Counted from the stretch's first letter, positions 26,286 through 28,610 are shown. The stretch: 50,559 nt of DNA from Candidatus Woesearchaeota archaeon (GCA_964594495.1 CAZQLX010000001.1:1-50559), one strand, 5' to 3'. The notes: generated by a model from the letters alone, not told the origin. Numbers and translations are program-made.

Positions 26286-26879
26286 TTTAATCTCTTTTAT
26301 TTGAATTAATATTAAACTGAATAAATAAACCTTGCTAGTCTGCTCTCGGTGTGTAATTTGAGGAAAAATTTTTCAATTTTAGTTGACTTATCTTTTCCTT
26401 TTTAACTGTATTAATTTTCTTTACTACTTCTTTTCTTAATTTGAAAGTATTTTCCCATTTTGCATAAGCTTGCTAACCTTCATAACTTTCCATCATTTCT
26501 CTATAAGATACCTCTCCTTTGTCAAAATTAACAATTTGCTTAAACATTTTTTTAACATTTCTTTTTCTTAATAATTTGTATTTATAGAAATTTCTAAAAC
26601 CAAGAAAATCTATTCCTTGAGATAAAGGAATAACTTTTGATTTATCTTTGTGCAACTCGATGCACAGATTTTTCTTAAGAAAATTATTTATTTCATATTG
26701 CCAAATAATTAATTGCTCTTTTGACTTATGTAAAATCACGAAATCATCCACATATCTAATATAATATTTTGCTTTGAGACCATGTTTAACAAAATAATCC
26801 AGCTCATTAAGATAAATATTAGCAAAAAACTGTGAAGTTAAATTACCAAGAGGCATGCCTTTGTGGCATGCGGAAGTTA

Positions 26880-26895
26880 CTCTCTCTCTCTCTCT
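26880..26895 (-). repeat. (AG)8 dinucleotide tract (CT8 on the plus strand) at the second RT frameshift
   Basis: Read directly from the sequence. The frame change between RT pieces 2 and 3 maps to this tract. Confidence 0.9.
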
Positions 26896-27328
26896 TCATT
26901 TTGAAGTTCGTATTAATGGTATTCTTTAATATTTTTTCTATTAAAAAGATCACATCTCTATCGATTATTGTTTTTTTAATTATGCTTGATAAGATATTGT
27001 GGTTAATTTCCTCAAAATAGTGCTTAATATCTGCTTTGAGACAATAACCCGTAATATAATTGCAATCTCTAAATGTATTTTTAGCAACTAGACCATTATT
27101 TGAAACTTTCCTCTTAAAATAATCGAATCTTTGTAAAGCAAATAAACCCCCCTTCCCTTTTCTGTTAGCGCATGAATCATATATAAATTTTCTATCGAAA
27201 AGAGATTCTATGATATTACAAAGAGCATGATGAACAATGCGATCTCTAAAATCAGACTTAGATATCTTACGTGTTTTTGGGTCTCTTAGAATAAAATTCT
27301 TAAGAAATTTTGGATTATAGGTTTTATA

Positions 27329-27368
27329 TTTAAGTTCATAATGTAAAGTTTAAGTTCATAATGTAAAG
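27329..27368 (-). repeat. Perfect 20-bp tandem duplication (2 x TTTAAGTTCATAATGTAAAG, plus strand) inside the RT
   Basis: Positions 27329-27348 are identical to 27349-27368. Each copy encodes 'LHYELK', in two different frames. Confidence 0.95.
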
Positions 27369-27532
27369 CCATTAAATTATAAAAGATATTATTTTCAAAT
27401 TCAATAACATAACTCTTTTTGGTCTTTCCTTTTCTTGCTTTTTTCCAAGCTAATATTAAATTCTCAAAAGAAATGACTTTTTTGTATAAGTTGTTATATG
27501 CAATCATTATAAAAGTCCTAGCCAGTGCTGAG

Positions 27533-27622
27533 CCATTCGACCATTACTGTTGGAATCGTCTAACCTGTTGTTCCAATTGGCGTTCCAGTTGCCGTTCCTG
27601 TTACGGTACAGCCTGAGAAAGC
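27533..27622 (-). repeat. DGR template repeat (TR), non-coding, about 90 nt (boundaries +/- a few nt)
   Basis: It aligns with 27944-28039. It is rich in AAC/AAT codons (9 Asn codons in the VR frame) and ends 25 nt upstream of the RT ATG. Confidence 0.85.
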
Positions 27623-27800
27623 TTATTTAGCCAATTAATCAAGATATCACTGTTGTTTCATATTTCAGTTCGGTTTCTCAAAAACCTCATAATTTACTTA
27701 ATGTTACAACTGTATTTTATAACTCTTAAGAGAGCCGTAATTAAATGACATGTGGCCCAGCCATTAAATGGCTAGGAAAAATAACAAGAGACAATCATTT

Positions 27801-28610
27801 TTAAATTAATGCTTTAAGACTTTTTTGAAATTCTGCTAATCTTGCTTTTTGTGTTTGCCTCAAGACTTCAATTCTAGTATCATCGATATCTCTAACCATT
27901 TGTTCTAAATTTTCTGCGGTGGCTTCGCCACATACAAAATCACCCACCCGACCAACACTGCCGGAATCGCCCAACCTGCCGTGCCAATCGGCGTACCAGC
28001 CACAGCCCCCGCCCCCGCCACGGCACAGCCTGAGAAAGCCCGATTTTGCTCTAAAGGGAAAATTAGCTTCCAGAAATTTTTGAGCTTTTTCTCCAGAAAG
28101 AATTTCCGGGTTATTTTTAGAAGCTATAAGATTTATACCATAAGAATTTTCTCCTTTTTTCAAATCGAACGCCTTAAAAGAAGGAAAAACAATAGGAAAC
28201 TCTCGACCTTTCATTTGTACCCTTATAGATTTAGCAAACTCTTCGTTTGGCGAATCTACACTATAAAGGACAGCTCCTATGTCCCTATAAACTCCATTAG
28301 TCAATTTTTCAAATTTATCTAAAACTTTAAATTCTTTAACACCGGGCAACCACAATTGATTATTACTTTTTCTAGCCCATTCTTGATTTATTAGAATGCC
28401 AAGAAAGATATAACTCCCTTCATTCTCGCCTGTTTGTGGATTATACTTAAAGTATCCTTTAAATCCAATAGATTCTGGAAATTCTTGCGCGATTCTTGTT
28501 TGAACTGACTCGGCAATTCCTTTATTTTCTTCTGCAGTTGTAGTTCTTGCATATCTAAACTTCTTACTTTTAGAATTATACCATAATGGAACTAATTGAG
28601 CTTCTATCAT
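27801..28610 (-). CDS. DGR target (variable) protein, 269 aa, with VR at about residues 191-223
   Basis: The intact ORF contains the VR, which encodes 'GFLRLCRGGGGGCGWYADWHGRLGDSGSVGRVG'. The TR-encoded version 'FLRLYRNRNGNWNANWNNRLDDSNSNGRM' resembles the 'R(V/L)xRGGSWNNN' VR of C-type-lectin-fold DGR targets. Confidence 0.8.
   Translation of the reverse strand: MIEAQLVPLWYNSKSKKFRYARTTTAEENKGIAESVQTRIAQEFPESIGFKGYFKYNPQTGENEGSYIFLGILINQEWARKSNNQLWLPGVKEFKVLDKFEKLTNGVYRDIGAVLYSVDSPNEEFAKSIRVQMKGREFPIVFPSFKAFDLKKGENSYGINLIASKNNPEILSGEKAQKFLEANFPFRAKSGFLRLCRGGGGGCGWYADWHGRLGDSGSVGRVGDFVCGEATAENLEQMVRDIDDTRIEVLRQTQKARLAEFQKSLKALI
27944..28039 (-). repeat. DGR variable repeat (VR), about 96 nt, inside CDS 27801..28610
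   Basis: By hand alignment it differs from the TR at 21 of 28 TR adenines, at 1 of 62 other positions, and by a 6-nt insertion. It is a local GC-rich spike in an AT-rich genome. Confidence 0.85.

Follow-up and report, generated by a model that had tools for sequence, protein, structure and literature searches.

Analysis of a 50,559-nucleotide stretch of DNA from a Candidatus Woesearchaeota archaeon (GCA_964594495.1, CAZQLX010000001.1:1-50559; the whole stretch is referred to here as the window) revealed a cassette of a diversity-generating retroelement (DGR). The cassette contains a target gene encoding a variable protein, a variable region (VR) inside this gene, an RT-16 RNA motif, a template repeat (TR), and a disrupted gene for a DGR reverse transcriptase (RT). 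All of these elements are located on the minus strand (Table 1). With a probability of about 80%, the target gene is the variable protein gene of a nanoarchaeal-type DGR in a DPANN archaeon, in which the recipient-site marks are embedded in the open reading frame (ORF) and of which the copy in the window is frozen.

Table 1. Positions of the cassette features in the window and of related loci with tandem paralogs (IMH, initiation of mutagenic homing)
Feature	Position	Strand	Basis or remark
Variable (target) protein gene, 269 aa	27801..28610	minus	stop codon at 27801-27803
VR, residues about 192-223	27944..28039	minus	alignment to TR
TR	27533..27622	minus	alignment to VR
IMH-like G-rich VR 3' end GGTCGGGTGGGTGAT, encoding GRVGD	27939..27953	minus	GRV invariant in the family
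IMH*-like counterpart GGTCGAATGGCTCAG at the TR end	27528-27542	minus	
Recipient-site hairpin GTGGC-GAA-GCCAC, encoding invariant CGEAT (residues 227-231)	27919..27931	minus	found in homologous loci
Predicted C-terminal amphipathic helix, coding region for residues 232-269	27804..27917	minus	AlphaFold2 and periodicity
TATA-like box ATTTAAAAAT, which covers the final codon of the target gene and its stop (TAA)	27797..27806	minus	putative promoter
RT-16 RNA motif (Rfam RF03019), directly 5' of the TR	27622..27776	minus	cmscan, 93.1 bits
DGR RT gene, disrupted	26335..27507	minus	three-frame translation
Tandem paralog loci	L001 5201-6804; L005 3109-4738; L008 2576-4217; L086 and L090 2128-3738		

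Alignment of the VR with the TR revealed that 21 of the 28 TR adenines but only 1 of the 62 non-adenines are altered in the VR. The two repeats also differ by one 6-nt indel, which is a two-codon insertion in the VR relative to the TR. The TR contains 9 AAY codons and 18 variable codons, cannot give rise to a stop codon, and has a capacity of about 5e14 protein variants. The gene thus shows the hallmarks of a DGR target: adenine-specific differences between VR and TR, an RT in the cassette, and an AAY-rich, stop-proof TR. The VR positions derived from AAY codons alternate with the invariant residues W205, A207, and W209, and the TR-encoded strand shows the alternating pattern W-N-A-N-W, which fits a strand with one variable face. 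This alternation would leave a single hypervariable face. The VR is internal; it is followed by 46 further residues (D224 to I269), as had been reported in an earlier reading of the DNA that was made from the sequence alone (the sequence-only reading).

The adenine substitutions in the window VR (18 to G, 2 to T, and 1 to C) are accompanied by a glycine-rich VR allele. The A-to-G bias belongs to the RT clade or to selection on these proteins and not to the window copy. A bias in the same direction was observed in related cassettes (G in 150 substitutions, T in 33, and C in 5); these sums cover TR/VR pairs with few non-adenine changes, for which the window and the loci L001, L005, L011, L015, L083, L085, L086, and L109 were compared.

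The translation of the target ORF is identical to the protein sequence quoted in the sequence-only reading. That reading had described a protein with neither signal peptide nor transmembrane (TM) segment and with no recognizable domain in the N-terminal 190 residues, and had named a wrongly placed start codon with a signal peptide upstream of it as one of two findings that would refute its novelty. An in-frame stop codon is positioned three codons 5' of the target ATG, so that a hidden leader or an N-terminal extension is impossible, and the two closest homologs share the start position of the target. Neither a leader of the Sec, Tat, or pilin type nor a TM segment was found in the target or in any of 80 family members. 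The 19-residue Kyte-Doolittle mean peaks at 0.29 in the target, and the highest value across the 80 members is 1.61, in an internal segment. These low maxima indicate that the target lacks a signal peptide and a TM segment. Searches of Pfam, NCBIfam, PHROGs, PADLOC, and PDB sequences returned no match to the target, and none of the 80 family members gave a Pfam match at an E value of 1 or below. The description therefore holds on each of these points.

The stretch between the target stop codon and the TR, which at first appears to be a spacer, is the RT-16 motif. The match exceeds the gathering score of 50 (E = 7e-15), covers the model over its full length, and abuts the TR. The RT gene follows directly downstream of the TR, and its C-terminal fragment matches the Pfam domain RVT_1. 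A tblastn search with an intact relative revealed three separate RT pieces with 57 to 63% identity. The first break is a perfect 20-nt tandem duplication, the second is a frameshift at an (AG)n run, and the third is an in-frame TAG at a position where relatives have Trp (...SFQGWNAYAKW in the intact relative). No second RT was found in the assembly from which the window was taken. The window VR is considered a frozen allele because of the three breaks in the RT gene and the lost collinearity of VR and TR. The target ORF nevertheless retains every family-invariant residue as well as the hairpin. In the closest relative (cassette at L084 4107-5143), the RT is likewise interrupted: a frameshift near residue 183 coincides in position with the (AG)n frameshift of the window (26880-26895).

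Recipient-site marks within the reading frame

The 3' end of the VR is a G-rich, IMH-like element, which is paired with an A-containing IMH*-like element at the end of the TR. The pair GGTCGGGTGGGTGAT/GGTCGAATGGCTCAG resembles the IMH/IMH* of the DUSEL4 DGRs (PMC4372165). In the nanoarchaeal DGRs of that study, an IMH with TGGGGT is paired with an IMH* with TGGAAT; the pair described here reads CGGGTGGGTG in the VR and CGAATGGCTC in the TR and shares the G-versus-A logic without matching the published hexamers exactly. Hairpins with a GRA trinucleotide loop have been reported within every nanoarchaeal target gene (Paul et al. 2015, PMC4372165). Such a hairpin, GTGGC-GAA-GCCAC, is positioned just 3' of the VR and inside the target ORF. 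Its GAA loop is the Glu codon of the peptide CGEAT, and a possible lower stem would lengthen it to 27910-27939.

To assess conservation of the hairpin, 36 distinct family sequences were anchored by their protein alignment and were not selected for the presence of a hairpin. In this set, 89.8% of the stem cells are paired, and five of the six pairs show compensatory double changes. Compensatory stems in homologs, given with the encoded peptides, are TGTTGC/GCAACA (CCEAT), TGTCGC/GCGACA (CREAT), AGTGGC/GCCACT (SGEAT), TGCGGC/GCCGCA (CGEAA), and CGTGCC/GGCACG (RAEGT). The pairing and covariation values were reached in none of 500 shuffles, and they collapsed in slid controls. These sequences indicate that the invariant peptide CGEAT is dictated by the DNA hairpin.

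The residues that follow the hairpin were modeled by AlphaFold2 as a single 37-residue helix (H232-268, pLDDT 80 to 88). In the family profile, the hydrophobic periodicity of this tail peaks at 3.6 to 3.7 residues and not at 3.5, and a heptad a/d pattern is weak; a coiled coil was rejected on these grounds. Of the two possibilities named in the sequence-only reading, an amphipathic or a coiled-coil helix, the first is thus supported for the tail and the second is not. The tail is 36 to 49 aa long in most hairpin-bearing family members.

The target gene ends within the TATA-like box ATTTAAAAAT. The box is located about 21 to 30 nt 5' of the start of the RT-16 RNA, and the embedded TAA of the target gene precedes RT-16 by 24 nt. 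The same arrangement was examined in 14 loci (the window, L001, L005, L007, L008, L011, L012, L015, L044, L084, L086, L095, L101, and L109). A box of the TTATAAAAA/TTTAAAAA type is present at the same distance from RT-16 in all 14, with the target TAA inside it or just before it, and in 13 of them the target stop ends 22 to 34 nt ahead of RT-16. The box that overlaps the end of the target ORF is probably an archaeal promoter of the RT-16/TR RNA. Of 20 related loci that were scanned, 13 have the RT-16 motif 3' of the target gene, including three with a TR but no RT.

The following layout is proposed for this DGR lineage. The recipient-site marks sit within the ORF rather than in noncoding DNA. 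The G-rich IMH encodes the strand GRVGDFV, and the GAA-loop DNA hairpin, encoding CGEAT, comes next. The reading frame then continues for about 115 nt beyond the hairpin, coding for the predicted amphipathic helix, and stops within the TATA-like box, the putative promoter of the downstream RT-16/TR RNA. The ORF would run past the VR because the IMH and the hairpin sit inside it, and the C-terminal tail would be, given the order of IMH, hairpin, and box, the stretch of ORF that leads from the embedded marks to the next promoter. The overlap of the IMH, the hairpin, and the downstream promoter with the ORF thus offers a concrete reason for an internal VR that is followed by a tail.

Family, genomic linkage, and known DGR targets

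The target matched 16 proteins in a collection of 5.8 billion proteins, and an exhaustive search returned 94 matching clusters at 50% identity. Nearly all family members are 250 to 290 aa long and have the layout of the target. The named genomes that encode the family are all metagenome-assembled genomes of Woesearchaeota or Nanoarchaeota (DPANN). No relative was found in IMG/VR, and a viral origin of the family is accordingly unsupported. The genome of the window, a 0.77-Mb assembly that is 79% complete, contains one copy.

The sequence-only reading had proposed to examine whether homologs are linked to RTs, and such a linkage was found. The family occurs in 15 of 401 phylum genomes, and 13 of these 15 carry a DGR RT, compared with 115 of the 401 overall (odds ratio 18, p = 3e-6). 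An RT, a TR, or both are positioned directly 3' in about 14 of the 22 family loci with enough flanking sequence. Where the sequence of a core-family locus extends at least 1.2 kb beyond the target gene, an RT follows directly in about half of the cases; three more of these loci have RT-16 and a TR without an RT. Many cassettes contain two tandem paralogous family targets ahead of a single RT-16/TR/RT unit, with both VRs matching the same TR (Table 1). In the survey of the phylum, DGR-type RTs (115/401 sampled genomes) were present in 95 of 281 genera; several genomes have three to five copies, and many of the RT matches are interrupted by stop codons or fall into pieces.

The phylum has many further DGR-adjacent proteins, of 250 to 300 aa, that are remote homologs of the family (20 to 105 bits by hmmsearch; 99.9% by hhalign), which makes the family part of a wider superfamily of DPANN target proteins. 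The suggestion of the sequence-only reading that the gene may belong to an undescribed variable-protein family agrees with these data: the family is conserved, lacks annotation in Pfam, NCBIfam, and PDB, and shows no detectable relationship to AvpA or to FGE-sulfatase lectin domains (FGE, formylglycine-generating enzyme). A conserved, unannotated, and DPANN-restricted target superfamily that is separate from AvpA is thereby defined. The DGR targets of DPANN and of the candidate phyla radiation (CPR) are the least understood part of DGR biology.

The closest known counterpart in layout is AvpA, the nanoarchaeal DGR variable protein of about 256 aa whose structure has been solved (PDB 5IOO; Handa et al. 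2016, PMC5006420). In AvpA, the VR is internal and exactly 46 residues, for which a helical structure was predicted, come after it; internal VRs are common in the variable proteins of Nanoarchaeota (PMC5006420). The target resembles AvpA and the DUSEL4 targets in its DPANN host, in its size (about 256 to 270 aa), and in the absence of a leader. As in AvpA, its VR is short and internal (about 32 aa, against 27 aa in AvpA) and leaves exactly 46 residues, with a predicted helical structure, up to the C terminus. Further shared features are the last strand encoded by the IMH, the GRA-loop hairpin in the ORF, and invariant aromatic residues in the middle of the VR. In comparison with PMC5006420, the target has the DUSEL4-type traits: it is an orphan protein whose VR is internal, it is extended at the C terminus, and it lacks an export signal. 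The targets of archaea (clade 5) and of CPR are typically without TM segments or other known domains, and whether they are truly nonmembrane proteins has been left open (Roux et al. 2021, PMC8144416). The target had been called atypical in the sequence-only reading, and this claim was not upheld, since the same traits have been published for archaeal targets (PMC5006420, PMC4372165, PMC8144416). For DPANN targets, the lack of an export signal, the internal position of the VR, and the helical tail are the published norm and do not mark novelty. The target is a typical nanoarchaeal-type DGR variable protein of an unannotated family that is distinct from AvpA.

This distinction is seen in the sequences. 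The target has no sequence or profile similarity to AvpA, and the family profile searched against PDB misses 5IOO at an E value of 10 or below. The AvpA motifs GxxVVVYAH, HPxxxPFxG, and RFxGV are absent from L002 and L003, the two loci in which the target gene is contained. In a regex scan, all three motifs occurred together in L036 alone, and the L036 protein, which served as a positive control, matched 5ioo_A at E = 4e-73. This gene (L036 2800-3654, minus strand) encodes a true AvpA homolog; a DGR RT is located on the other strand at a distance of about 300 nt. With at least 150 proteins at an E value of 1e-5 or below, the AvpA-like family is much larger than that of the target. Target-like ORFs of L025 and L038, with "RLVGV"-type endings, were considered as further AvpA-like proteins and were rejected after PDB searches returned nothing.

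A second comparison concerns the targets of the FGE subclass of C-type lectins (Mtd of a Bordetella phage and TvpA of Treponema; FGE-sulfatase/DUF1566). As in these proteins, a globular domain would end in strands and loops formed by an AAY-encoded VR, the TR is stop-proof, and variable residues alternate with invariant residues of the scaffold. A W-LP-x-x-E motif ahead of a helix and weak structural matches of FGE type are further likenesses. In contrast to the target, Mtd- and TvpA-type proteins have the VR at the extreme C terminus, their IMH and hairpin reach or lie in noncoding DNA, and they are exported, lipid anchored, or part of the virion. The target family also differs from FGE-type targets by the lack of a Pfam match and by an hhalign probability of 0.1%.

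By description, the target is also similar to VR classes found in DPANN and CPR genomes, where VRs could not be assigned to lectin or immunoglobulin (Ig) folds and had no known motifs; the CPR/DPANN DGRs of that study include the unclassifiable classes UVR1-6 as well as VRs that fall into no group (Wu et al. 2018, PMC5758913). Nanoarchaeal targets have been described as orphan proteins whose groups are unlikely to share a structure (Paul et al. 2015, PMC4372165), and the supplement of that study contains no motif that matches the target family.

Localization, fold, and state of the copy

The absence of a leader or TM segment in the target and in family members indicates that the target is not classically exported. 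The proposal of the sequence-only reading, a cytoplasmic or nonclassically exported protein, is in line with the lack of a classical export signal in the target and the 80 members. An intracellular or contact-site binding role is favored, with roughly even odds. The main alternative, which is less probable, is surface display or nonclassical secretion of the protein, which would then act as an adhesin in attachment to a host or to particles, with the C-terminal helix as a module for anchoring or oligomerization. Most cellular DGR targets are surface proteins (PMC8144416), a role in symbiosis has been proposed for AvpA-like proteins (Handa et al. 2016, PMC5006420), and the tail is amphipathic and conserved in length, all of which would suit an adhesin. 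All 80 family members lack a leader and a TM segment, however; the tail has a periodicity of 3.6 to 3.7 and not the 3.5 of a heptad, it is missing in some remote relatives, and secretion or surface genes are not conserved beside the cassette.

To study the fold, a full-length model was generated by AlphaFold2 with an alignment of 16 sequences. The model is confident (pLDDT 87.6, pTM 0.83) and shows a mixed alpha/beta protein with seven helices. The predicted elements are a strand (residues 55-64), a helix (68-81), the WLP motif (86-89), a helix (91-99), a strand (112-115), inserts, and three strands (192-197, 205-208, and 225-230). Their order, beta1, alpha1, WLP, alpha2, beta2, inserts, beta3, beta4, beta5, is compatible with the C-type lectin (CLec) topology of DGR targets. 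An Ig-fold target is not supported, given the mixed alpha/beta model with its seven helices and the absence of Ig Pfam matches among the 80 family members. A truncated model of residues 84-232 alone was poor (pLDDT 64.6, with the VR part below 50), and its Foldseek search was empty; residues 84-232 were therefore dropped as a stand-alone lectin domain. The cut had taken away the likely beta1 and alpha1 (residues 55-81), and the result indicates only that the N-terminal part belongs to the fold. Residues of about 1-231 may form one globular alpha/beta domain, presumably ligand binding, of which the VR would form the last strands and loops. As far as the model goes, this domain has about an equal chance of being or not being a highly divergent C-type-lectin-like scaffold. 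With a confident model at hand, the superfamily is a reasonable candidate for structure determination.

Several results weigh against the reading of the gene as a nanoarchaeal-type variable protein with a lectin-like domain. Foldseek searches with the full-length model gave no significant match in PDB or BFVD (none at an E value of 0.001 or below), and AvpA (5IOO), Mtd, and TvpA were outside the top 50. The matches obtained were weak and FGE-like (E values of 0.3 to 1.4, TM-score about 0.3). They included OvoA (8khq) and a sulfatase-modifying-factor (SUMF)-like protein of phage LMM01; a further weak match, ToxD (7spq), was not relied on, as its likeness to FGE is unconfirmed from the literature. 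By hhalign, the family reached a probability of 0.5% against 39 AvpA-like proteins and of 0.1% against 13 FGE-sulfatase domains of the same phylum, and the wider superfamily reached 8.5% against the AvpA-like alignment. The remote relatives alone reached 4.3% against AvpA and were aligned solely at the IMH-encoded GRV/GRF strand. The sole piece aligned to the FGE alignment was G-lWLPT-x-E against G-x-LPT-x-x-W. About a third of the family loci have no RT or TR nearby, which indicates that the target protein can exist outside a DGR. In some remote relatives, the ORF ends just after the hairpin, with no tail or a few residues, and the tail is therefore not essential to the scaffold.

The loose resemblance to an FGE/C-type lectin fold that had been noted from the sequence, and for which structure prediction had been suggested, is a weak lead: the element order, the WLP motif, and the weak FGE-like matches fit it, and no significant structural neighbor or profile match was obtained. 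An alternative reading is that DGR hypervariation in this family uses a new scaffold, which has neither the C-type lectin fold nor the Ig fold. In favor of such a scaffold, a confident model has no PDB or BFVD neighbor at the threshold given above and no known DGR variable protein in its top 50, the profiles show no similarity to AvpA-like or FGE-type alignments, and structural differences among the groups of nanoarchaeal targets were suspected by Paul et al. (2015, PMC4372165). The CLec fold of AvpA, however, was also unpredictable from sequence before its crystal structure was determined (PMC5006420), and for this reason the sequence null weighs little against a CLec fold. In a control, AvpA, with its proven CLec fold, was equally undetectable by hhalign against the FGE alignment, which leaves room for a lectin fold in the target. 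The element order, the WLP-x-x-E motif, the weak FGE-like Foldseek matches, and the IMH-encoded last strand also fit the CLec topology, and a new scaffold is considered unlikely. Somewhat less likely still is the wider proposal that the DPANN-only superfamily constitutes a third DGR scaffold, non-lectin and non-Ig, serving as an intracellular, leaderless, antibody-like binder whose helix would couple it to a partner or a membrane.

It is very improbable that the window copy has lost its function together with its DGR cassette and is decaying into a pseudogene: the triply broken RT, the 6-nt indel and the non-adenine change in the VR, its glycine-rich allele, and the existence of decayed homologs with internal stops (L009 and L006) would agree with decay, but the 269-codon frame is intact with all family-invariant residues and the hairpin kept, relatives whose cassettes are intact commonly have G-rich VR alleles as well, and intact members without an RT or TR nearby suggest that the protein is useful without ongoing diversification. 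The preferred reading is that of a frozen variable protein gene.

Related loci show other forms of cassette. In L006 (2053-2760), the target gene contains an internal stop and ends in the TR-like sequence ...GRMAQIIWLGL directly before the RT; it looks as if recombination between VR and TR had deleted the tail, RT-16, and the spacer. In L011, L012, and L109, the target gene is followed by RT-16 and an adenine-biased TR, with no RT within 3 to 4 kb downstream. These three cassettes have lost their own RT or rely on an RT elsewhere.
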